Shown here: in pieces, positions 1 to 47,956 of the stretch
Position numbering within the stretch: the stretch's first letter is position 1
Layout of the letters: each line of letters begins with the position of its first letter
Assembly: GCF_030384885.1 (NCBI RefSeq)
Contig: NZ_CP128613.1
Length of the DNA stretch: 64,000 bases
Strand: one strand, 5' to 3'
Source of the DNA: Escherichia coli
GTDB taxonomy: Bacteria; Pseudomonadota; Gammaproteobacteria; Enterobacterales; Enterobacteriaceae
Notes under the pieces: generated by a model
Seen by the model: the letters and a program-made list of their open reading frames with translations, nothing else
Told to the model about the DNA's origin: nothing
The model's database searches: none
Made by a program: the position numbers and the translations under genes

Positions 1-2
1 TG

Positions 3-221
3 CGTTATCGCGATAAAGAAGGCAAAATCCATGCTGATTACAACGCGTTCTGGGAGTCGGTTGGCGGCGTATGTGATGCTGAACGCCATTACCGCCTTCC
101 GGCACAGATAGCACGAAAAGAGATTGCCGAAATCGCCAGTAAAAAACGGGCTGAATATCGTCGGCGCTATGAGATGCTCGACGCTATTCAGCCACAAATG
201 GCCACGATGTTTCGCGGTTAA
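3..221 (+). CDS. ybjX: C-terminal fragment of a protein running in from upstream of the window (likely VirK/DUF535-family YbjX); convergent with ybjD
   Basis: Open frame from window edge to TAA at 219-221; assignment rests on synteny next to ybjD, the protein itself was not recognised. Confidence 0.4.
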   Translation, partial: RYRDKEGKIHADYNAFWESVGGVCDAERHYRLPAQIARKEIAEIASKKRAEYRRRYEMLDAIQPQMATMFRG

Positions 222-1876
222 TCCGCGCGACCGCGCGCCAGCCACAGCACGCGTGAGAACATTTTTTTCAGCAGCGTCGGTACGGAATCCACACCACGAC
301 GGCCGGCCTCCATTGCCACTTCAATGGCAAGATCGGGTTTGGAAGAGCGATGGATCGCTTTCGAGATAATTTTGCGCAAATTCATCGGCACATTTTCCGG
401 GATCTGCGCCACGCGGTGGAACACATCAGAAAATCCCTGGCGATACATAAAATGTTCCATATCCAGCGCCGGTAACGCCGTTAAATGTTCTCGTTCGGCT
501 TCCCGATCGTTATTCAACAGGCTGCGTACCGTAGCGGCATACTTCTTCCCGGCTTCATCGCCATCGACCAGCACATGCCATTCAATCCCCATTCGACGGG
601 CGAATTTAACCAGTGGCTTTAGCCCGGACTGGGCAAACTCAATGACCTTGATCCCTTCGGCATCAAAATGATGTCCACACTGACGCGCCAGTTCATTGAT
701 AACCCAGGTTTCCGTTTCGCCTTCCACCAGCAGCCAGCAGCGAGCAAACAGCGATGACGGACGGTTAAAACGAATGTGGAAAGAGATACGTCGGCTGTCT
801 TCGGTACTCAAGCCACTCGGACCCAGACGCCAGGCTGCAACGCGAGAGGACTCACGTACCAGACGGCAAACATGCTCTACCGGCGTTAACGAAAGCAACT
901 CACCCGAGTTGGTGGTGGCAATGCGCTGCAATGGCAGAAGATTCAACAGATGCCAGGCAACTGAAAGCATAATGGGGTGTAAACGGGTTTCTGGATCTTC
1001 GATCAGCAACAATGGACGGGCGTCTTTATCCAGTCGCAATGTGCCTTTTGCCTGCAATAAAGTAGCAAACAGGCCGAGCAAAATAACCCGATACGAGCGC
1101 CCTCCAGGCCGGTCAATCATCCGGTTGATGATATCCAGATAGCGCCAGCTTCGTTGCTCATTACTGGCTCGCCGCCGCATTAAACGATATCGCGCCTGTC
1201 CGGCCCCCTGCTCAGAGAAATAATGCTCAAGCAGCTGCACCATTGCGGAAAGTCCCTGACGAATCTGTCCATCAGAGAGATTTTGCGGATGTGAGGATAA
1301 TTCACGGGCGAGGAAATCGAGCTGGCGCGCGGTGACTTCCACATTAGGGACATTTGGCACCGTGCCGTTACGAATACGGCGCATAAAACGGGCATCACGC
1401 AAGCGCAACACCGGCATTAAACGCACCAGATGGCGTGCCTGATCGTTAATATCCTCGACATCAATCGGATGTCCGTCTTTATCGAGAAAACTGCGGAGTG
1501 TCATCACACTGCCATCTTCCGCACTCTCCCCTTCCAGGCGATAAAAAATTCGATGATAACCATCGGTGCATGGCGTCCAGCATGCTTCCAACGGTCGATA
1601 GCGGCGTACCCGATGACGGCCTGGCAGCGATTCGCGGAAGGTCAAAATAATATGCAGATGATGTTCCCGCCCGTTGATATCTCCCGGCGGAAACCAGAAA
1701 TCGTCGCGCTCAAAATGGTAGAGATCTGATTCTGGCGATAGCAGCAGGGTTAAGGCGTCCAGCAAGCTGGATTTACCCCACGCGTTCTCCCCAATCAGGA
1801 CGTTGTTTTGTTCCAGCATCAACGATAAACGGTTGATACCGCGAAAACCCACAATTTCAACGCGCTCAAGAATCAT
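218..1876 (-). CDS. ybjD: OLD-family ATPase/nuclease-like protein YbjD (552 aa)
   Basis: ORF translation begins MILERVEIVGFRGINRL with Walker A GENAWGKSS; length matches YbjD. Confidence 0.9.
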   Translation of the reverse strand: MILERVEIVGFRGINRLSLMLEQNNVLIGENAWGKSSLLDALTLLLSPESDLYHFERDDFWFPPGDINGREHHLHIILTFRESLPGRHRVRRYRPLEACWTPCTDGYHRIFYRLEGESAEDGSVMTLRSFLDKDGHPIDVEDINDQARHLVRLMPVLRLRDARFMRRIRNGTVPNVPNVEVTARQLDFLARELSSHPQNLSDGQIRQGLSAMVQLLEHYFSEQGAGQARYRLMRRRASNEQRSWRYLDIINRMIDRPGGRSYRVILLGLFATLLQAKGTLRLDKDARPLLLIEDPETRLHPIMLSVAWHLLNLLPLQRIATTNSGELLSLTPVEHVCRLVRESSRVAAWRLGPSGLSTEDSRRISFHIRFNRPSSLFARCWLLVEGETETWVINELARQCGHHFDAEGIKVIEFAQSGLKPLVKFARRMGIEWHVLVDGDEAGKKYAATVRSLLNNDREAEREHLTALPALDMEHFMYRQGFSDVFHRVAQIPENVPMNLRKIISKAIHRSSKPDLAIEVAMEAGRRGVDSVPTLLKKMFSRVLWLARGRAD

Positions 1877-2301
1877 ATCCCCTCCAGAAATATGTGACTT
1901 ATCCTTTACGCTGGCAGTATAACGGGAAAGGCCTTGCTAATACGTGATGACATCACATTTAAGCATGGCAAATGTCTGAAAAATGAGCGAATAATCGCGT
2001 TATACTCCCTCTTGCTGATAAGTCTGCAAAAACAACAAAATCAAATAATTAGCATGATAAATTATTTTTTATTACGCCTAAAGGATTAAATCTTTTGCTT
2101 GCACTACACTGTCAATCAGACAAATGACTATATGGGGCAACCCGCTGTTGCCCTAAATCAAATTTACTGGATTTATTTATCTGGTGAATGACTCGCCTTC
2201 GTTTTTAAAATAGCCGCGCATTATTTCCGTCGTCACTTTTTTACGACGACCCTATAAAACGACCATATTTTTCACAGGGTCAATTTTTAATTGAGGTGGA
2301 T

Positions 2302-2997
2302 ATGTTCAGAAAATTAGCAGCTGAATGTTTTGGTACTTTCTGGCTTGTTTTTGGTGGCTGTGGTAGTGCCGTACTGGCCGCAGGCTTCCCGGAATTAGGT
2401 ATTGGTTTTACCGGCGTGGCGCTGGCATTCGGTTTAACCGTTCTGACGATGGCCTTCGCTGTTGGTCATATTTCTGGTGGTCATTTTAACCCGGCGGTCA
2501 CTATTGGCTTATGGGCTGGCGGACGTTTTCCGGCAAAAGAAGTCGTTGGCTACGTAATTGCCCAGGTTGTCGGCGGTATTGTTGCAGCGGCGCTGCTGTA
2601 TTTAATTGCCAGTGGTAAAACGGGATTTGACGCGGTAGCCAGCGGTTTTGCTTCTAACGGTTATGGCGAGCATTCACCAGGCGGTTATTCCATGCTTTCC
2701 GCGCTGGTAGTTGAACTGGTATTGAGTGCAGGTTTCTTGCTGGTGATCCACGGCGCAACCGACAAATTCGCTCCGGCGGGTTTTGCACCAATTGCCATTG
2801 GTCTGGCATTAACGCTGATTCACTTAATCAGTATTCCGGTGACTAACACTTCCGTTAACCCGGCGCGCAGTACTGCGGTTGCCATCTTCCAGGGCGGCTG
2901 GGCGTTAGAACAACTGTGGTTCTTCTGGGTGGTGCCAATTGTCGGCGGCATTATCGGTGGTCTGATTTACCGGACTCTGCTGGAAAAACGTAATTAA
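2302..2997 (+). CDS. aqpZ: Aquaporin Z (231 aa)
   Basis: Translation [22 protein letters not shown]; ATG at 2302 preceded by GAGGTGGA RBS; the ORF-track GTG start at 2296 is rejected. Confidence 0.95.
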
Positions 2998-3007
2998 TTA
3001 ACGCAGA

Positions 3008-3035
3008 AGGCCTGGCGCAATGTCAGGCCTTTTTT
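3008..3035 (+). terminator. Rho-independent terminator of aqpZ
   Basis: Stem AGGCCTG / CAGGCCT around a 9-nt loop, followed by TTTTT. Confidence 0.7.
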
Positions 3036-3089
3036 AAATATATTGATTCATCTTCCTGTTGCGCTCCTTGATGTGTTAAGCCACATATA

Positions 3090-3330
3090 GTCACTGGCGC
3101 AGGGAGCGCGCAGGGGGCGGCCAATCGCCGCCGCCCCCTGCACCCCCGGGCTCTGGCGAACAAAATCGCCGCTGCGCGGTGCCCTCGACTTATCCCTTGC
3201 GGCTACCGGGTCGGGCGCGAGGTAACATCCCGGTAAAACGCGCCCTCAGCCCACATCCATGTGGGCTGCCCCGGCCTTCAGGGAACACCTCGGCGATTTT
3301 GACGCCACCAACACCGGTGAGGTTTGTAAT
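3090..3330. repeat. GC-rich structured intergenic element with nested palindromes, class not recognised
   Basis: Perfect 12-bp inverted repeat GCAGGGGGCGGC...GCCGCCCCCTGC and a second palindrome CCCACATCCATGTGGG in a block far more GC-rich than flanking intergenic DNA. Confidence 0.4.
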
Positions 3331-3479
3331 TAAAGCGCAAGAATATCTTTAAATGAAAATGAATACCCTACCGATCCTTATGCATAACATTTCCTTTTAA
3401 TTGCAACTTTACTCGTCCTTCTGCTTTCAGTAGTGTGTCATCGCGCATTTCGAATCTTCTTTGCAAGGACTGGGTTTTC

Positions 3480-7287: not shown

Positions 7288-9006
7288 ATGAAACAAACGG
7301 TTGCAGCTTATATCGCCAAAACACTCGAATCAGCAGGGGTAAAACGCATTTGGGGAGTCACGGGCGACTCTCTGAACGGTCTTAGCGACAGTCTTAATCG
7401 CATGGGCACCATAGAGTGGATGTCCACCCGTCATGAAGAAGTGGCGGCCTTTGCCGCTGGCGCTGAAGCCCAACTTAGCGGGGAACTGGCGGTCTGCGCC
7501 GGATCATGCGGACCTGGCAACCTGCACTTAATCAACGGTTTGTTCGATTGTCACCGTAATCACGTTCCGGTACTGGCAATTGCCGCTCATATCCCTTCCA
7601 GCGAAATTGGCAGCGGCTATTTCCAGGAAACCCACCCGCAAGAGTTATTCCGTGAATGTAGCCATTATTGCGAGCTGGTTTCCAGCCCGGAGCAGATCCC
7701 ACAAGTGCTGGCGATTGCTATGCGTAAAGCGGTGCTAAACCGTGGCGTTTCGGTTGTCGTTTTACCGGGCGACGTGGCGCTAAAACCTGCACCGGAAGGG
7801 GCAACTACCCACTGGTATCACGCCCCCTTACCCGTTGTCACACCTGAAGAAGAAGAGTTACGCAAACTGGCGCAACTGCTGCGTTACTCAAGCAATATCG
7901 CCCTGATGTGCGGTAGCGGCTGCGCGGGGGCGCATAAAGAGCTCGTCGAGTTTGCCGGAAAAATTAAAGCGCCAATTGTTCATGCCCTGCGCGGTAAAGA
8001 ACATGTCGAATACGATAATCCGTATGATGTCGGAATGACGGGATTAATCGGCTTCTCGTCAGGTTTTCATACCATGATGAACGCCGACACGTTAGTGCTG
8101 CTCGGCACCCAATTCCCCTACCGTGCGTTCTACCCGACCGATGTCAAAATTATTCAGATTGATATCAACCCGGCCAGCATCGGCGCGCACAGTAAGGTGG
8201 ATATGGCACTGGTCGGTGATATCAAATCGACTCTGCGTGCATTGCTGCCTTTAGTGGAAGAAAAAACCGATCGAAAATTTCTGGATAAAGCGCTGGAAGA
8301 TTACCGCGATGCCCGCAAAGGGCTGGACGATTTAGCTAAACCGAGTGAGAAAGCCATTCACCCGCAATATCTGGCGCAGCAAATTAGCCATTTTGCTGCC
8401 GATGACGCCATTTTCACCTGTGATGTCGGCACACCAACGGTATGGGCGGCGCGTTATCTGAAAATGAACGGCAAGCGCCGCCTGTTAGGTTCGTTTAACC
8501 ACGGTTCAATGGCCAACGCCATGCCGCAGGCGCTGGGTGCTCAGGCGACAGAGCCAGAACGTCAGGTGGTCGCCATGTGCGGTGATGGTGGTTTCAGTAT
8601 GTTGATGGGCGATTTTCTCTCAGTGGTACAAATGAAGCTGCCAGTGAAAATTATCGTCTTTAACAACAGCGTGCTGGGCTTTGTAGCGATGGAGATGAAA
8701 GCCGGAGGCTACCTGACAGACGGCACCGAACTGCACGACACCAACTTTGCCCGTATCGCTGAAGCGTGCGGTATTACGGGCATCCGCGTAGAAAAAGCCG
8801 CTGAAGTCGATGAAGCCTTGCAACGCGCCTTTTCCATCGACGGCCCGGTGCTGGTGGATGTGGTAGTCGCGAAAGAAGAGTTAGCCATTCCGCCGCAGAT
8901 CAAACTCGAACAGGCCAAAGGATTTAGCCTGTATATGTTGCGCGCAATCATCAGCGGACGCGGTGACGAAGTGATCGAACTGGCGAAAACGAACTGGCTA
9001 AGGTAA
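7288..9006 (+). CDS. poxB: Pyruvate oxidase (ubiquinone), 572 aa
   Basis: Translation [32 protein letters not shown]; thiamine-diphosphate enzyme. Confidence 0.95.
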
Positions 9007-9042
9007 AAAGGGTGGCATTTCCCGTCATAATAAGGACATGCC

Positions 9043-10044
9043 ATGATTGATTTACGCAGTGATACCGTTACCCGACCGAGCCGCGCCATGCTCGAAGCAA
9101 TGATGGCCGCCCCGGTTGGGGACGACGTTTACGGAGACGACCCTACCGTTAATGCTCTGCAGGACTATGCGGCTGAGCTTTCCGGTAAAGAAGCCGCCAT
9201 TTTTCTGCCTACCGGCACCCAGGCTAACCTGGTCGCGCTGCTCAGTCACTGCGAACGCGGCGAAGAGTATATTGTCGGTCAGGCCGCGCATAACTATCTG
9301 TTTGAAGCCGGTGGCGCAGCGGTGCTGGGCAGTATTCAGCCGCAACCCATCGATGCTGACGCCGACGGTACGCTACCGCTGGATAAAGTGGCGATGAAAA
9401 TCAAACCCGACGATATCCATTTCGCCCGCACCAAATTACTCAGTCTGGAAAACACCCACAATGGAAAAGTGCTGCCGCGGGAATACCTGAAAGAAGCATG
9501 GGAATTTACTCGCGAGCGCAATCTGGCACTGCATGTTGACGGTGCGCGTATCTTTAATGCCGTGGTGGCTTACGGCTGCGAACTGAAAGAGATCACGCAA
9601 TATTGTGATTCGTTCACCATTTGTCTGTCGAAAGGTCTTGGTACGCCAGTCGGTTCATTACTGGTCGGCAATCGTGATTACATTAAACGCGCCATCCGCT
9701 GGCGGAAAATGACTGGCGGCGGGATGCGTCAATCCGGCATTCTGGCTGCCGCAGGGATGTATGCGCTGAAAAATAACGTCGCACGCTTGCAGGAAGACCA
9801 CGACAACGCAGCCTGGATGGCGGAGCAGTTGCGTGAAGCAGGCGCGGATGTGATGCGTCAGGACACCAATATGCTGTTTGTTCGCGTCGGACAAGAAAAT
9901 GCTGCCGCGTTAGGCGAATACATGAAAGCGAGAAACGTACTGATTAACGCCTCGCCGATTGTCCGCCTGGTAACCCATCTTGATGTCTCGCGTGAACAAC
10001 TGGCAGAAGTCGCAGCCCACTGGCGCGCTTTCCTGGCGCGTTAA
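9043..10044 (+). CDS. ltaE: Low-specificity L-threonine aldolase (333 aa)
   Basis: Translation [33 protein letters not shown]. Confidence 0.95.
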
Positions 10045-10054
10045 GGAGCGAAAC

Positions 10055-11485
10055 GTGCCGCAACGCATTTTAGTTCTCGGTGCCAGTGGCTACATTGGTC
10101 AGCATCTGGTGCACGCGCTTAGCCAACAAGGGCATCAGACCCTGGCGGCGGCACGTCACGTCGACAGGCTTGAAAAGCTGCAACTGGCAAACGTCAGTTG
10201 TCATAAAGTCGATCTCAGCTGGCCGGATAACCTTCCGGCCCTGTTGCAGAATATCGATACCGTCTATTTTCTGGTGCACAGCATGGGCGAAGGCGGTGAT
10301 TTTATCGCTCAGGAACGCCAGGTAGCTCTTAACGTCCGCGATGCGCTGCGCGAAGCACCGGTTAAACAATTAATCTTTCTCAGTTCATTGCAGGCCCCGC
10401 CTCACGAGCAGTCGGACCATCTGCGCGCCCGTCAGGCTACGGCGGATATTCTTCGTGAAGCGGGTGTCCCGGTGACCGAATTGCGCGCCGGAATTATCGT
10501 TGGTGCAGGTTCAGCAGCGTTCGAAGTCATGCGCGATATGGTCTACAACCTGCCAGTGTTAACACCGCCACGCTGGGTTCGTTCACGCACCACGCCCATC
10601 GCGCTGGAAAACTTGCTGCACTATCTGGTGGCGCTGTTAGATCATCCGGCCAGCAAACACCGCATCTTCGAAGCCGCCGGACCAGAGGTGCTCAGTTATC
10701 AGCAACAGTTTGAACATTTTATGGCGGTGAGCGGTAAGCGCCGCTGGTTAATCCCCATCCCCTTTCCCACCCGCTGGATTTCGGTGTGGTTTCTTAATGT
10801 GATTACCTCCGTACCGCCCACCACCGCCAAAGCGTTGATTCAGGGGCTGAAACATGATCTGCTGGCGGATGACACCGCGCTACGTGCACTCATCCCACAA
10901 CGGCTGATCGCTTTCGATGACGCGGTACGTCGCACGTTGAAAGAAGAAGAAAAGCTGGTCAACTCCAGCGACTGGGGATACGACGCTCAGGCCTTTGCCC
11001 GCTGGCGACCGGAGTACGGTTATTTCGCCAAACAGGCGGGGTTTACCGTTAAAACGTCCGCCAGCCTTGCGGCTTTATGGCAGGTGGTGAATCAAATCGG
11101 CGGTAAAGAGCGTTATTTCTTTGGCAATATTTTGTGGCAAACCCGGGCGTTGATGGACCGCGCGATCGGTCATAAGCTGGCGAAAGGCCGCCCGGAGCGT
11201 GAATATTTGCAGACCGGAGATGCGGTGGATAGCTGGAAAGTGATTGTCGTTGAACCGGAAAAACAACTTACGCTGTTATTTGGCATGAAAGCGCCGGGGC
11301 TGGGACGACTGTGTTTTACCCTGGAAGATAAAGGTGACTATCGTACTATCGATGTTCGCGCATTCTGGCATCCGCACGGTATGCCGGGGCTGTTTTACTG
11401 GTTACTGATGATCCCCGCGCATCTGTTTATTTTTCGCGGAATGGCAAAACGAATCGCCAGACTGGCAGAACAAAGCACAGATTAA
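10055..11485 (+). CDS. ybjT: Putative NAD(P)-binding oxidoreductase YbjT (476 aa), GTG start
   Basis: AAGGAG RBS at 10043-10048 then GTG at 10055; translation (M)[18 protein letters not shown] with Rossmann GxxGxxG. Confidence 0.85.
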
Positions 11486-42084: not shown

Positions 42085-42120
42085 AACTTAAACATGAAGG
42101 GGGAGACGCTTTCTCCCCCT
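42085..42120 (-). terminator. Terminator hairpin downstream of bssR
   Basis: Stem GGGGGAGA / CTCCCCC with a 6-nt loop; U-rich tract follows on the minus strand. Confidence 0.55.
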
Positions 42121-42126
42121 TAGTTT

Positions 42127-42510
42127 TCAGGCCTTCTCAAGCATGGCGTGCTTCTGCAGGCTCTGGATACTCAGCGTTAAGCTCATCAGACAATTTTCAA
42201 GCTTATCGGCGTTGACGGTAATAACAGTCGGGCAATCATGGTGCCCACTCATCAAACATACTGCGGCTGTCGCTAATGCTTCTTCAGCATGATGAAGAGC
42301 ACTCCACTCTTCCTGATCCAGATGAAGATTCAACCGCAGCGATTTATCGTGCAGTTCGCGATTCAGTTTAAAAAAGTTATCTCGTAGATGATTGCTTTCG
42401 CTGACGGACATGTATCCTTTTGCCTTCCTCAGTTGCACGTATGCAGCGAGGTCAACGCGTGCGTCGATCAACCGGTTCAGCAGATCGATTCGCTGTCTGT
42501 CAACGAACAT
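42127..42510 (-). CDS. bssR: Biofilm regulator BssR/YliH (127 aa)
   Basis: Translation MFVDRQRIDLLNRLIDARVDLAAYVQLRKAKGYMSVSESNHLRDNFF from internal ATG. Confidence 0.9.
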   Translation of the reverse strand: MFVDRQRIDLLNRLIDARVDLAAYVQLRKAKGYMSVSESNHLRDNFFKLNRELHDKSLRLNLHLDQEEWSALHHAEEALATAAVCLMSGHHDCPTVITVNADKLENCLMSLTLSIQSLQKHAMLEKA

Positions 42511-42722
42511 ACTTCGATCCTCCTCTTTCCAGCCTTGTTGCAATTAAATAGTATGGCTATTTTTTGAGCAAAATGCTGTCCAGGATCAATTCTTCACGCC
42601 GAATTAACAAAATTTACATTTCCTTCGCCTCCGCCAGCGAATGAGATTGCGATACAAATTTTATCCAGAACTCTGTAGAATCCCTGCCCTGACCTTTCCT
42701 GTAACTGAATATTTTTTAAGCT

Positions 42723-44048
42723 ATGAGCAAAGTAACTCCCCAGCCGAAAATCGGCTTTGTTTCCCTTGGCTGTCCGAAAAACCTTGTCGATTCAGAGCGT
42801 ATTCTCACCGAACTACGCACCGAAGGTTATGACGTGGTACCGAGCTATGACGATGCGGACATGGTGATCGTCAATACCTGCGGCTTTATTGACAGCGCGG
42901 TACAAGAATCACTGGAAGCCATTGGCGAAGCGTTGAATGAAAACGGCAAGGTAATTGTGACCGGTTGCCTGGGGGCGAAAGAAGATCAGATCCGCGAAGT
43001 CCACCCGAAAGTGCTGGAAATTACCGGGCCTCATAGCTATGAGCAGGTTCTTGAGCACGTTCATCACTACGTACCAAAACCGAAACACAACCCATTCCTG
43101 AGCCTGGTGCCAGAACAAGGTGTGAAACTGACGCCGCGTCATTATGCCTATCTGAAAATTTCTGAAGGCTGTAACCACCGCTGCACCTTCTGCATTATTC
43201 CGTCTATGCGCGGCGATCTGGTGAGCCGTCCGATTGGCGAAGTGTTAAGTGAAGCGAAACGACTGGTTGATGCGGGCGTTAAAGAGATTCTGGTGATCTC
43301 GCAGGATACTTCCGCCTATGGCGTCGATGTTAAACATCGTACTGGCTTCCACAACGGCGAGCCGGTAAAAACCAGCATGGTCAGCCTGTGTGAACAGTTA
43401 TCGAAACTGGGGATCTGGACACGTCTGCACTACGTTTACCCTTATCCACACGTGGACGACGTCATCCCACTGATGGCGGAAGGCAAAATCCTGCCGTATC
43501 TGGATATCCCGTTGCAACACGCAAGCCCGCGCATTCTCAAACTGATGAAGCGTCCGGGTTCTGTAGATCGCCAACTGGCGCGCATCAAACAGTGGCGCGA
43601 AATCTGCCCGGAACTGACCCTGCGCTCAACCTTTATTGTCGGCTTCCCTGGCGAGACGGAAGAAGATTTCCAGATGCTACTCGATTTCCTGAAAGAAGCA
43701 CGTCTGGATCGCGTTGGCTGCTTTAAATACAGCCCGGTTGAAGGCGCAGATGCCAATGCCCTGCCTGACCAGGTTCCGGAAGAAGTGAAAGAAGAACGCT
43801 GGAACCGTTTCATGCAGCTACAGCAGCAGATTTCCGCCGAGCGCCTGCAAGAGAAAGTGGGCCGTGAAATTCTGGTGATTATCGACGAAGTGGACGAAGA
43901 AGGCGCGATTGGTCGCAGCATGGCAGATGCACCGGAAATCGACGGCGCGGTTTATCTCAATGGTGAAACCAACGTTAAGCCGGGTGATATCCTGCGTGTG
44001 AAAGTCGAGCACGCCGATGAGTACGATTTGTGGGGTAGCCGGGTTTAA
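42723..44048 (+). CDS. rimO: Ribosomal protein S12 methylthiotransferase RimO (radical SAM MTTase, 441 aa)
   Basis: Translation [25 protein letters not shown]; radical-SAM CNHRCTFC motif. Confidence 0.95.
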
Positions 44049-44054
44049 TTAATT

Positions 44055-44084
44055 CAGGCAGGGCAACATCATTTGCCCTGCCTG
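44055..44084. terminator. Hairpin between the convergent rimO and dgcI
   Basis: Perfect 12-bp stem CAGGCAGGGCAA / TTGCCCTGCCTG with a 6-nt loop; flanking A/T-rich but no long T run. Confidence 0.5.
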
Positions 44085-44094
44085 CTAATAATGA

Positions 44095-45423
44095 TTACTG
44101 CCAGCTAATCTGCGCCCTGCCGTTTTTCTTACTCTTATACAGTCGCTCATCCGCCAGCATTTTCAAACGTTCAACGGTGGTACATTCATTTGAATGCGCT
44201 ACGCCGATACTGGTGCTCAAGTTAATACTCCCCACCTGGAAATGGACGATTTCTTTTAGAATCGATAGCAACTCCTCCAGCGTTCCGCCAGTATAAATCA
44301 CCGCAAATTCGTCACCGCCGAAGCGGTAGACTTTACCTTTATCTACCGGGATTTGTGATTTAAGGATTTTCACCACTTTCATCAACACTTCATCGCCCAG
44401 TAAATGACCGAAGGTGTCGTTAATGTTTTTGAATTTATCGACATCAAAAAGACACAGATAGCCCCCTTTTTCCGGCAGGGCTTTTAAATCTTCATCAAAG
44501 GATTTTCTGCCCATTGCTTTGGTCAGGTCGTCCAGAAACGCCGAGTTATACATACTGTAGAGTTTTTTGACATCGGCAGCCGAGAAGAAAAGCCCACCGT
44601 CCAGGACGCGTTCAAAATGGTTATTAATAATGGCTTCTTTCTCCACAATGCCACGATTAATCACTCTGCGCACCAGATAAAGGCAGCTAGCACCCGATAT
44701 CACTGCCACCAATGCAGCAAAGAAAATAATCAACATACATACCTGAAAATAAACGTCTTTTTTATACGAAAATACGTACAATCCGGTCGGCAAATAGGCG
44801 AAGTGCTCCATTGCTTCCGAAACGGTGAAGATGGCGTTTTTAGCATTATATTCATCACCGGTCACCGGTTTACCGTTCTTAAACAGAGAGAACATCAGGT
44901 TCTCGCTATCCATCGCCAGCGATTTTGACAGTAAAGAAAAACGCTCCAGACCAAGCAAAAATATCAGACTGCGATTGTGAGTTACCGGATAGAGGTAATA
45001 GACGAAGGTTTTACCGTCAAAAGAGATAAACCCTGTATTTTTGACATGTCGATACTTAACAACCTGCATAATATCTGCACAATAATTTTTCTCGAACTCC
45101 TTTACCTGAATACATTCGTCACTGGAAATCAGATAAGGACCGACATCGTACAAATAAGAGGGTGAAACCGAGTCGGCGTAAGCTGTGCGCAAGCCAACCA
45201 ACAGCTGTTCCTCCGTGGGATTTAGCGTGTTGATGAGATCAATTGCCACGCTACGCCGATATTCAGCAATATTTGCCACCGCAAAAGCAGTATCAATAAC
45301 GGACTGTTTCAGGCCATACACCCGTTCCTTTACCATTTGAGTGTAGATCCCGCAGGCAACTGCTGAAATCATGATAAAAATCAGCAGACTGACTGTAAGT
45401 ACGAACTTATTGATTCTGGACAT
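44095..45423 (-). CDS. dgcI: Diguanylate cyclase DgcI/YliF (442 aa), membrane-anchored GGDEF protein
   Basis: Translation [25 protein letters not shown]...; GGDEF motif in [10 protein letters not shown]. Confidence 0.9.
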
Positions 45424-45430
45424 ACGTAAA

Positions 45431-47779
45431 CTACTCTTTTACTAATTTTCCACTTTTATCCCAGGCGGAGAACGGCATGGGTTTCTGGTACAGATACCCC
45501 TGAGCCTGAACACATCCTAATTTGATTAATTCGCGCGCAACGTCTTCGCTCTCTACGCCTTCCGCAATCACCGGGATCCGGTTATAGCGTGCCAGATCGA
45601 AAATAATGCGCACAATTTTCCCCGCAGTACCGAAAATATCGCCGGTAAATTGCGAGTCCACTTTTATACTGTCTGGATTAATTTCATAAAAACGTTTCAG
45701 GTTTGACAAACCGGTGCCAAAGTCATCAATCGATATCCGTACCCCTTGTTTACGCAGTTGTTCAATATTGAGATAAAAATGTTCATTAATTCGCTCGATC
45801 ACAGTTTCAGTGATCTCAACACAGAGGCTGTTCGCCTTCAGGCCATTTTCTTTCATGATGGTGGTAAAACGCTCATGAAAGTGTGGTTCGTTTAACTGCC
45901 AGGGCGAAACATTAATATGCAGTAAGAAACCGTCCTTCAGCGACGCACGCTGACTAAAATGTCTGAATTCACCCATCGCGGTTTTAATAATTTGATAACC
46001 CAGCTCATTGATAAACCCGATATCTTCAGCAATGGTAATGAACTTCAGCGGTGAAATGATCCCCCGCTCCGCAGACACCCAACGGCACAACGCCTCCGCG
46101 CCCAGAATGGCGCGGGTGTTAATATCAACAATCGGTTGATAGACCAGGAATAGTTCGCCAATTTCCATGGCATGGCGAATATTACGCGCAATCCAGATAT
46201 TCTCTTCTATTTCGTTGAGTTTCGCGTCATCACAGAAAATAAACTCTGAGAACATATGGTCACGGATACTGGAAATCGCCAGTTTCAGTTTTTCTGCGTA
46301 ACTCCAGGCGTTTTCTCCCTTCAACGGTTCACAAATGGCAGACTTATGGATGCGCAGATTGCGGTAGCCAAAGCTGCTGTCAAAATCGTTTATCATCGCT
46401 ATTTTACGGGTAAATGTCTGTACATTTTCCCGGCACAGAAGTAAATAGAGATCGGCATTGAATGTCACGATATCGCAGCATTGCGCATATTTCTCGGCAA
46501 TTCGCTGACACAATTTCCTGACGATTTTATTGCGTTCATCAACACCAAACACCGCTTCCACGGCTTCCAGACCACACAGTTTGATGATCCCCACAGCCAG
46601 ATACTGATTATTGTTTGACTCAATAATCGCCATATTTTTAATAAAACCGCTTTCCTGATCGTAAGAGATCAGTGAGAGCAATTTATTTGACCGTTCAATT
46701 TCGGCATCTTTCATTTCCGCGATCGAATTTTTGATGCTGATAATCTCTTTCGCATCGCCTTCGCGAATTTTCAGAGCCTCGATTTGATCCGTTGAGTCGG
46801 GCAAAAATGCCAGCGTATTAACCAGCTCGGTCATTTCAGAAAATTGCCGACGGAACACACGAGTGGTCATTAAATAAACCACCAGCAATACGATAATAAT
46901 GAAAGCAAACGGCAGATAAAAAAGTTTATCTGATGCGTTCAATAAATTACCGCCAGGATAATAAAAATAGATTTCGAATAATGCGTTGTTTGGCACCGCT
47001 GATGTTTTTTCGATATATTCAGTATCGACAGAATCAATAATATTATAATTGCCTTCGCTATTATAAATAATCAGTTTTTCACGAGCGAGTTGATTCTTGG
47101 CAATGATCTCATGGCCTTGTTTCAAAAATAGAACTTCATCATTAGCGCTGATTTGATCAAGATACTCGTTCAGATATCGCCAGTTTAAATCGACATGAAT
47201 TTTATCCACCACTAACAAATCGTGATCTTTGCCGTTGATGCGTAGCGTAAAAGAGATACATTTTTTACCCGGACGATCAAAGCAATTGTATGCCGGATTC
47301 CAGCTGTTGTTAGAGTCATCTGAAGCCACAGACCACGGTCGTTTCGATGGGTTAAAATCGGCAAAAATAACCCGCCCTGACTCGTCGACAAGCGGTCCAT
47401 TTACTTGTTCCTGATGATAAACAGCGATTTTATCATTTGCCCTCCGCGAAAAGAGATAATATTTATTATCATCAAGTACCAGTCCCACCGAGTCTAAAAA
47501 TGGCATCATTTCCATTTTAAGGATCACAGCGCGTTGAATCTCCTCTGTATTTTTTAATAAATACAGTGAGTCCTTTAATGTCAGGGCCGAACGTTCAATA
47601 TCTTTAAAGAAATAGCCAACGTTTTTCTGAATAAGTTCAAAGCGGCTATCGGCACGTTTTACCGCGCGTTCCGATACCAGTTGATAGTTAATGATGAAAA
47701 AAAGACCAATAAATGACAGCGCTGCCAATAAAAATAAAATTATCAACCTTATTTTTATCTTTTCGTATAAACTCAGCAT
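45431..47779 (-). CDS. pdeI: c-di-GMP phosphodiesterase PdeI/YliE (782 aa), membrane-anchored EAL protein
   Basis: Translation [33 protein letters not shown] from internal ATG; C-terminal EAL domain. Confidence 0.9.
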
Positions 47780-47956
47780 GTTAATACATTTAACAAAATA
47801 ACTATCTGAACGCCGTGCCGCTGCAAAAACAGTCCCTTGCTGCGGCTTTTTAACCAAATTACCCGATTCTACAAAATCAGCAGAAAGTTACAACACTTGC
47901 TTAGGGCAATAATTTCCTGTGAGGTGATTACCCTTTCAAGCAATATTCAAACGTAA

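Follow-up and report, generated by a model that had tools for sequence, protein, structure and literature searches.

In Escherichia coli, the genes of the diguanylate cyclase DosC and the phosphodiesterase DosP (also named DgcO and PdeO) lie side by side and are co-transcribed, forming a sensor-controlled couple that makes and breaks cyclic di-GMP (c-di-GMP; Tuckerman et al. 2009, as cited in PMC5635695); both products are cytoplasmic oxygen-sensing haem proteins and the cyclase gene comes first. The present analysis concerns the genes pdeI (yliE) and dgcI (yliF), encoding a membrane c-di-GMP phosphodiesterase and a membrane diguanylate cyclase, respectively, which were found together with bssR and rimO at positions 42127–47779 of a 64,000-nucleotide stretch of E. 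coli DNA (contig NZ_CP128613.1, assembly GCF_030384885.1; hereafter, the window). The pair resembles DosC-DosP in the adjacency of a cyclase and a phosphodiesterase gene, but PdeI and DgcI are membrane proteins with periplasmic sensors predicted to be dCache-like, and the phosphodiesterase gene comes first. Our reading, to which a probability of roughly 0.55 is assigned, is that the functional unit is the two-gene cassette pdeI-dgcI, encoding a co-transcribed, sensor-controlled phosphodiesterase and cyclase and acquired as one piece.

Other described systems resemble parts of the two proteins. The dCache_1AA sensors (PctA, Mlp37, Tlp3 and the Aeromonas cyclase of structure 7k5n) provide the best fold match for the modelled PdeI sensor, which also seems to carry residues like those of their amino-acid motif (AA_motif) with the right spacing; unlike these sensors, PdeI has F142 and S150 in place of tyrosines, an extra cysteine-stapled hairpin by the predicted pocket and no match to Pfam dCache_1. 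A second likeness is with the CSS-domain phosphodiesterases, PdeC and its relatives, which are membrane EAL enzymes having a conserved cysteine pair in the periplasmic domain; in PdeC, disulfide formation reportedly controls activity (Herbst et al. 2018). Unlike them, PdeI has no CSS-motif domain recognised by Pfam, and its cysteines, whose redox role is hypothetical, are placed in a dCache-like fold. On plasmids, homologues of YliE and YliF have been described as the commonest c-di-GMP genes beside bcs clusters, and their adjacency was noted (preprint 10.1101/2025.05.09.653004). These copies have the gene order, domain architectures, invariant catalytic residues and cysteine pairs of the chromosomal pair, whereas they differ from it in sequence (25–40% identity), in guanine-plus-cytosine (GC) content (31–35% vs 41–44%), in the junction (11-bp overlap or 9-bp gap) and in the sensor motif (YxxxxRxWY vs FxxxxRxWS); some of them adjoin bcsA-bcsB, from which the chromosomal pair lies far.

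The closest relatives are the K-12 proteins PdeI (YliE, b0833) and DgcI (YliF, b0834), which are the products of the same genes. The proteins of the window are 99% identical to them (776 of 782 and 436 of 442 residues, thus six amino-acid substitutions in each), about 2.6% of the nucleotides differ, mostly synonymously, and no functional difference is apparent from the sequences; as in K-12, gsiABCD lies upstream of the pair, rimO and bssR lie downstream, and the junction measures 7 bp. As established by open reading frame (ORF) listing, Pfam scans and megablast, the stretch is indeed the well-known chromosomal locus bssR-rimO-dgcI-pdeI and not a chance pattern: E. coli 2013C-4282 (NZ_CP027579.1), in which RefSeq annotates the four genes, has it at 100% identity, and it was matched in 5425 of 5426 complete E. 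coli genomes. A first-pass annotation of this DNA had placed the four genes here, with a GGDEF-bearing ten-letter motif in DgcI, with pdeI and dgcI 7 bp apart on the same strand, and with both convergent with rimO and near bssR. All of these features were recovered where it had put them, the 7 bp being exact, the GGDEF itself falling at 44305–44319 and the gap between dgcI and rimO measuring 46 bp; bssR is divergent from rimO, and gsiABCD lies upstream of pdeI on the same strand. Its description of both products as membrane enzymes with large periplasmic regions also holds, since in each protein two hydrophobic segments flank about 200–255 aa (residues 12–30 and 286–304 by hydropathy in PdeI, 8–26 and 224–242 in DgcI). 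The architecture is thus, for PdeI, transmembrane segment, CHASE9/dCache-like sensor, transmembrane segment, linker, degenerate middle domain and EAL and, for DgcI, transmembrane segment, GAPES2 periplasmic sensor, transmembrane segment and GGDEF. Translation confirmed the coordinates given in Table 1 for the DgcI periplasmic domain, the PdeI middle domain and the PdeI sensor motif.

Table 1. Coordinates, within the window, of the pdeI-dgcI pair, its domains and signals, and the neighbouring genes.
Feature	Position	Strand	Basis or remark
pdeI (yliE), 782 aa, membrane c-di-GMP phosphodiesterase	45431–47779	-	Pfam CHASE9 1.2e-62, EAL 2.5e-69
PdeI periplasmic sensor, aa 31–285	46925–47689	-	CHASE9 aa 35–150 (47330–47677)
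Amino-acid-sensor-like motif F142-x4-R147-x-W149-S...Y164-x-C166-x7-C174...D197	47189–47356	-	distal sensor module
PdeI middle domain, aa 366–520, with G412	46220–46684	-	divergent GGDEF domain according to the literature
PdeI EAL catalytic domain, aa 532–767	45479–46186	-	aligns to solved phosphodiesterases 5yrp and 2r6o (TBD1265)
dgcI (yliF), 442 aa, membrane diguanylate cyclase	44095–45423	-	Pfam GAPES2 4.6e-141, GGDEF 2.9e-25
DgcI periplasmic GAPES2 domain, aa 27–223	44755–45345	-	AlphaFold2 model, Foldseek
DgcI cysteine pair C104 + C115	45079–45114	-	invariant in 9/9 sequences
DgcI GGDEF catalytic domain, aa 295–437	44113–44541	-	aligns to active cyclases DosC and DgcZ
pdeI-dgcI junction, 7 bp (TAG tttacgt ATG)	45424–45430	-	sequence
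Candidate sigma-70 promoter of pdeI(-dgcI), TTGTAA-16 nt-TAGAAT	47866–47893	-	consensus scan, 9/12 matches
Perfect 12-bp inverted repeat CAGGCAGGGCAA-N6-TTGCCCTGCCTG in the rimO-dgcI gap	44056–44085		sequence and RNA fold
rimO, ribosomal protein S12 methylthiotransferase, 441 aa	42723–44048	+	Pfam UPF0004, Radical_SAM, TRAM_2
bssR (yliH), biofilm regulator, 127 aa	42127–42510	-	Pfam YliH E 1.9e-82; RefSeq annotation

The two-gene cassette is supported in the first place by the persistence of the arrangement in distant relatives. The sensor domains are rare: a HMMER search of 1.84 billion representative proteins, performed with the concatenated periplasmic domains of PdeI and DgcI and with matches assigned by query coordinates, retrieved 51 matches, a few of them at 25–35% identity, and word-index searches with the two sensor regions gave matches only in Escherichia and Shigella proteins. 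In this HMMER set, all distant PdeI-like matches with a locus extending downstream had a GAPES2-GGDEF gene immediately next. Across the copies the phosphodiesterase gene precedes the cyclase gene, at a gap of 7–9 bp or with an overlap of 11 bp (32 bp in a single copy), and the pair itself recurs in E. fergusonii, E. albertii, about 70–100 Escherichia plasmids and one Salmonella plasmid. The E. fergusonii and E. albertii pairs are chromosomal and full-length and occupy the same site, the gap being 9 bp in the former and 7 bp in the latter (7 bp also in K-12), and a partial PdeI was found in E. marmotae. In E. coli, at least 80% of the DNA of the pair is present in 5380 of 5426 complete genomes, a figure that counts DNA presence irrespective of reading-frame integrity.

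The mobile copies are found in diverse surroundings. In plasmid NZ_AP025221 the pdeI and dgcI homologues share 11 bp, with IS1, bcsA and bcsB coming next, while in two contigs the pair is followed by IS200, bcsA and bcsB. The genes are 9 bp apart in the Salmonella IncFII plasmid, where bcs is absent nearby. Further copies of the pair lie among mobile-element genes, in the company of an integrase and a TraI_2 relaxase-family gene, and on a metagenomic plasmid. By tblastn against PLSDB, 98 true plasmids carry DgcI-like sensors and 68 carry PdeI-like N-termini, all matching records but one being Escherichia; in each of the 41 plasmid records listed in both searches, the two genes share a strand and are identically spaced. 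Such conservation of phosphodiesterase-cyclase adjacency in distant mobile homologues is strong evolutionary evidence that the proteins work together, and it bears out the earlier proposal that pdeI and dgcI belong together.

Some of these records show peculiarities of their own. In one contig (L010, nt 1–154) the first ~150 bp match ends of IS256/Tn3-family elements, and its PdeI-like gene is thus apparently 5'-truncated by insertion of a mobile element and not by the contig end. In the metagenomic plasmid (L013, nt 8001–10304) the PdeI-like gene is broken up into ORFs of 195 aa (CHASE9), 295 aa and 248 aa (EAL), being either a pseudogene or an assembly error, and the downstream DgcI-like gene is intact. 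Six PLSDB records of 0.7–4.9 Mb (CP088669.1, NZ_CP141089.1, NZ_OL790696.1, CP099174.1, NZ_CP134663.1 and CP061270.1) carry the chromosomal pdeI-dgcI at about 98% identity and look like mislabelled chromosomes or chromosome fragments; two 55-kb 'single cell' records likewise carry the chromosomal pair. A truncated DgcI allele (P0004, 399 aa), seemingly a widespread pseudogene, was discarded because frameshifts abound in the assembly from which it comes, rimO itself being broken into three pieces there.

Base composition delimits the same two genes. A low-GC block (37–46%) coincides with pdeI and dgcI and ends at their borders, the two genes having 41.5 and 43.6% GC, respectively, against 52.6% for rimO, 51–54% for gsiD and the other flanks and 48.4% for bssR. 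In the mobile copies GC is 31–35%, the two genes being alike within each cassette. The intermediate value of the chromosomal pair, between mobile copies and host, agrees with an acquisition long ago and a subsequent drift of its composition towards that of the host. Most likely, the cassette would have entered the Escherichia ancestor as one piece from a low-GC source, between gsiD and rimO, with diverged copies remaining in circulation on plasmids.

The gene layout is operon-like: the genes share a strand and are separated by a short gap, and the consensus scan gave neither promoter-like nor terminator-like sites at the junction or immediately before it. For dgcI there is a weak Shine-Dalgarno-like sequence (AAGAG) within the pdeI 3' end, which suggests translational coupling and a lower DgcI output. 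The candidate sigma-70 promoter lies 87–114 bp upstream of the pdeI ATG; in E. coli, E. albertii and E. fergusonii alike, the block GATTTTGTAGAATC, corresponding to the -10 element, is conserved, as is most of the -35 hexamer, and the other spacer bases diverge. At the opposite end, the inverted repeat between dgcI and rimO is predicted to fold as a hairpin of -24.4 kcal/mol (z = -5.5 vs shuffles) and is probably a two-way transcript end for rimO and dgcI; no U tract was seen on either side of it upon inspection of the sequence, so that intrinsic termination there is only inferred. Most probably, then, pdeI and dgcI would be co-transcribed as one mRNA from the promoter upstream of pdeI, and dgcI translation would probably depend on the 7-bp junction. 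No relevant operon-mapping study for the two genes was found in the literature search. A sigma-54 promoter of pdeI was also considered (a 9/11 match, AGGGACtgtttTTGCA, at 47822–47837 on the minus strand, 43 bp upstream of the ATG) and rejected, as eleven equally good matches occur in the window and the site is lost in E. albertii and E. fergusonii.

The first-pass annotation had named degenerate EAL or GGDEF catalytic residues as a finding that would refute a make-and-break pair; the residues of both domains were checked, and neither is degenerate. In DgcI the motif RFGGDEF occupies aa 367–373, and D327, D329, K332, N335, D336, H340, D344, R367 and the GGDEF itself (369–373) are invariant among nine homologues at 32–40% identity, as are the phosphate-contacting C-terminal residues R427 and K432. 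Compared with DosC and DgcZ, all the metal-binding, guanine-binding and GTP-phosphate residues of active cyclases are present. An RxxD inhibitory site is absent, the four residues at that position reading VDKG; this site is frequent in the family and not required. In a published table for strain CFT073, YliF has the full KNDHDRGGDEF site and, for the inhibitory site, 'GE' instead of 'DR' (PMC3484386). In the same strain the adherence phenotype of the yliF deletion was complemented by the foreign cyclase WspR (Spurbeck et al., PMC3484386), an indirect support for c-di-GMP synthesis by DgcI. Judged by these residues, DgcI is an active-type GGDEF cyclase with its catalytic residues intact. In PdeI, the residues E562-A-L-C-R566, N623, E655/E658, D685-D686, K706, E740/E743 and Q760 and the loop-6 DFGTG are invariant among seven homologues at 31–36% identity, and the CFT073 table likewise credits YliE with all EAL consensus residues (PMC3484386). 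On this comparison the EAL catalytic site is intact and non-degenerate, and its invariance at 31% identity indicates selection for hydrolysis.

Concerning the sensors, for which a CHASE- or CSS-type annotation had been suggested, the first alternative was found in PdeI, as CHASE9 (209.7 bits vs a Pfam cutoff of 27), and the second was not: no CSS-motif domain was found in PdeI by Pfam, and its conserved cysteine pair sits in a different fold. DgcI has instead GAPES2 (467.9 bits, cutoff 27). Profile and single-sequence searches of both sensors against solved structures gave nothing useful and hence no residue-level alignment to known ligand sites. The folds were assigned from AlphaFold2 models, built on small family alignments and judged confident enough to use. 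The PdeI model (aa 33–290; pLDDT 84.9, pTM 0.82) had 62 Foldseek matches in the PDB at E ≤ 1e-3, and the 50 listed were all dCache or tandem-PAS ligand-binding domains, led by amino-acid-bound sensors, namely 7k5n (a diguanylate cyclase, with proline), Mlp37 (serine) and Tlp3 (leucine), with TM-scores of 0.5–0.63. The PdeI sensor therein models as a divergent dCache fold, with a long helix and two PAS-like modules. The DgcI model (aa 28–228; pLDDT 79.8, pTM 0.72) retrieved the tandem-PAS/dCache sensors KinD, CqsR and LuxQ (E 8.5e-5 to 4e-3, TM-scores 0.51–0.56), so that GAPES2 of DgcI also models as a dCache-like fold. The fold class alone is common to the two sensors, for which BLASTP detected no homology (E 0.53).

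The distal module of the PdeI sensor contains a pattern, [Y/F]xxxxRxW[Y/S]-x14-Y-x-C-x7-C-...-D, that is shared by PdeI-like proteins and present in 7 of 8 of them. It recalls the published AA_motif, Y121, R126, W128...Y144...D173 in PctA numbering, with a W-to-Y spacing of 13–17 (PMC8915833). The plasmid copies have the exact YxxxxRxWY of the N-terminal half of that motif, and one plasmid homologue reaches 32.4 bits (E 8.8e-8) with Pfam dCache_1, short of the cutoff of 45 bits, in a match that ends at RPWY. In PdeI of the window the W-to-Y spacing is 15 residues, within the AA_motif rule, the equivalence to the solved sensors being inferred and not obtained by superposition. An amino-acid-type ligand pocket is therefore predicted here as a lead for ligand screening. 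C166, C174 and W160 are invariant among the homologues, and in the model the two cysteines stand at the base of a beta-hairpin directly after Y164. By analogy with the CSS-domain phosphodiesterases, a disulfide or redox role is plausible for this pair as well as for C104/C115 of DgcI. A further DgcI cysteine, C229 (44737–44739), inside the second transmembrane helix, is invariant in 9/9 homologues at 32–40% identity.

According to the cassette reading, the periplasmic sensor of PdeI, of divergent dCache_1 type, would offer an amino-acid-type pocket beside a cysteine-stapled hairpin, and the degenerate middle domain, most likely a regulatory module, would hold the EAL domain off until the signal arrives; DgcI would act as an active-type cyclase whose sensor, also dCache-like though unrelated in sequence, has a conserved cysteine pair of its own. 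Together, the two enzymes would set c-di-GMP up or down upon periplasmic small-molecule and/or redox cues. The target would likely be a nearby c-di-GMP receptor, an obvious candidate on plasmids being the PilZ domain of the cellulose synthase BcsA.

A number of observations weigh against this reading. DgcI protein was undetectable in K-12 in an analysis in which other GGDEF/EAL proteins were quantified (Sarenko et al., PMC5635695), yliF expression is very low and DgcI is toxic when overproduced (PMC5635695), all of which speaks against balanced co-expression. Overexpression of PdeI raised c-di-GMP about 11-fold (eLife 2024, PMC11651652), the reverse of what a simple phosphodiesterase would do. 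In CFT073, deletion of yliF changed adherence, whereas yliE was not among the mutants with changed motility or adherence (PMC3484386). By genomic SELEX (systematic evolution of ligands by exponential enrichment), a binding peak of the RpoN holoenzyme was mapped to the boundary between yliE and yliF (PMC8743547), so that dgcI could have its own internal promoter; despite this peak, a motif scan of the window found no sigma-54 motif near the dgcI start. Co-transcription is itself a prediction from gene layout, and the roughly 30 additional plasmids with a DgcI-like sensor (98 vs 68) imply that the cyclase can persist alone. As for the ligand, Pfam dCache_1 was not matched by aa 35–285 of PdeI even at E ≤ 10, and F142 and S150 of the chromosomal protein occupy positions that are tyrosines in the canonical motif. 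As for the output, bcs is distant from the chromosomal pair. From the undetectable DgcI and the effect of PdeI overexpression it follows that this is not a simple stoichiometric make-and-break couple in laboratory conditions, and the 'locally balanced' character proposed by the first-pass annotation is hypothetical.

Several of these points would be accommodated if the two enzymes were independent, being adjacent, and perhaps co-transcribed, through shared ancestry only, with each serving the global c-di-GMP pool upon its own signal. We consider this unlikely, even if it is the strongest of the alternatives. It agrees with the lack of detectable sequence similarity between the sensors, with the failure to detect DgcI in K-12, with the plasmid counts and with the different deletion phenotypes in CFT073 (PMC3484386). 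On the contrary, order, strand and near-zero spacing are kept at 25–40% identity in at least five unrelated genomic contexts and in 41/41 comparable plasmids, and passive linkage would not outlast such divergence and many rearrangements mediated by insertion sequences.

A stronger version of the partnership appears more doubtful still, in which PdeI and DgcI would be coupled, physically and obligatorily, into one sensor switch and would travel between replicons as a 'c-di-GMP set-point' cassette complete in itself. Here the divergent dCache_1 sensor of PdeI would bind a ligand resembling an amino acid, beside a disulfide hairpin sensitive to redox state, and the middle domain would govern the EAL domain of PdeI as well as the cyclase DgcI. 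Control of DgcI by the middle domain would explain why c-di-GMP rises upon overproduction of a 'phosphodiesterase', and the position of the plasmid pair beside bcsAB suggests local signalling to cellulose synthase.

That pdeI and dgcI were silenced after horizontal transfer and survive as a relic, of little function in E. coli today, is improbable. The low GC of the block, the very low yliF expression, the undetectable and, when overproduced, toxic DgcI (PMC5635695) and the few phenotypes of single deletions (PMC3484386) are what such a relic would display. Against it, both genes are maintained by strong purifying selection, as indicated by ratios of nonsynonymous to synonymous substitution rates (dN/dS) of 0.045–0.073 for pdeI and 0.034–0.046 for dgcI, and all catalytic residues are kept. 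The DNA of the pair is nearly ubiquitous in E. coli, and the genes are full-length in E. albertii and E. fergusonii. Moreover, yliE and yliF are induced together at 37 °C (PMC12890032) and with BolA (PMC5605933), which also favours the cassette reading, and pdeI marks a surface-attached subpopulation (PMC11651652).

It has been proposed that PdeI is in practice a c-di-GMP synthase, by means of its divergent GGDEF domain (eLife 2024, PMC11651652), which would make of the pair two makers; we hold this to be very improbable. The proposal is founded on the ~11-fold rise, on the correlation of PdeI-BFP level with the c-di-GMP sensor signal and on the mutation G412S, which abolishes the effect of PdeI overexpression, including the promotion of persisters; in young biofilms, the same work connects PdeI with heterogeneity of c-di-GMP and with antibiotic persistence (PMC11651652). 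However, the middle domain gave no Pfam match even at E ≤ 10, and against the DgcI GGDEF profile hhalign returned a probability of 0.4% (E 0.16). The best alignment falls in the GGDEF register, and in it all cyclase catalytic positions are replaced; the GGDEF position, reading NADLY in E. coli and NSNTY, SSDLY, NKNKY, SPYKY or SDKRF in homologues, varies freely, while G412 is conserved in 6/7 homologues. On these alignments the middle domain cannot be a canonical cyclase, whereas the EAL catalytic residues are all invariant. G412S was, in addition, first isolated as a mutation that lowers c-di-GMP when pdeH is mutated (Reinders 2016, cited in PMC11651652), and the overexpression strain kept the chromosomal dgcI and other cyclases, so that PdeI may raise c-di-GMP indirectly. 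The sequences speak for such an indirect effect and against the middle domain as the origin of the rise, which points to DgcI or another cyclase as its source.

Finally, the first-pass proposal that bssR, rimO, dgcI and pdeI form one biofilm and c-di-GMP module is scarcely credible and was rejected: the genes are adjacent, with their order kept in E. coli and E. fergusonii, and BssR is annotated as a biofilm regulator, but rimO, encoding a conserved ribosomal-protein modification enzyme of normal GC and convergent with dgcI, is a housekeeping neighbour (dN/dS 0.001–0.009) whose product is 98.4% identical to that of E. fergusonii and 99.8% to that of E. albertii, against 69% for PdeI and 78.5% for DgcI in E. 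fergusonii, bssR is a separate unit divergent from rimO, an ORF intervenes between dgcI and rimO in E. albertii, the low-GC block ends at the borders of the pair, and neither rimO nor bssR stands beside any of the mobile cassette copies examined.

The locus and its plasmid relatives are already in the literature, so the two-gene mobile unit is a confirmation and an extension. What is added here is incremental and comprises the fold assigned to GAPES2, the lead from the amino-acid motif, the cysteine pairs conserved in the sensors, the finding that both sensor families are extremely rare and the data on composition and selection. For practical purposes, pdeI and dgcI are best treated as one unit, having stayed together through 60–75% sequence divergence and repeated transfer between replicons. 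The amino-acid-type dCache pocket predicted in PdeI, with a conserved disulfide candidate beside it, offers a ligand class for screening, and cellulose synthase is a reasonable first output to examine.

Some minor observations concern the alleles and the surroundings of the pair. The pdeI-dgcI allele of the window (44095–47779) is unusual in DNA, identity of at least 99% being found in 6 of 5423 E. coli genomes and most others lying at 96–97.4%; dS of dgcI against K-12 is 0.19, above that of the neighbouring genes. In E. albertii CP043271.1 (nt 10672–11385 of the extracted locus, L006), the extra ORF between dgcI and rimO codes for 237 aa with faint HEAT-repeat matches and overlaps the dgcI 3' end, and yliI is missing there between bssR and gstB. 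In E. fergusonii CU928158.2 (L004, nt 1–3451) iaaA is missing between moeA and gsiA, a gene present in E. coli and E. albertii. In the window, a sigma-54-like GG-N10-GC match, GGGCACcatgaTTGCC (9/11), lies at 42231–42246 on the minus strand within the 3' part of bssR, and a terminator-like hairpin pair occurs at 42099–42119, between yliI and bssR.

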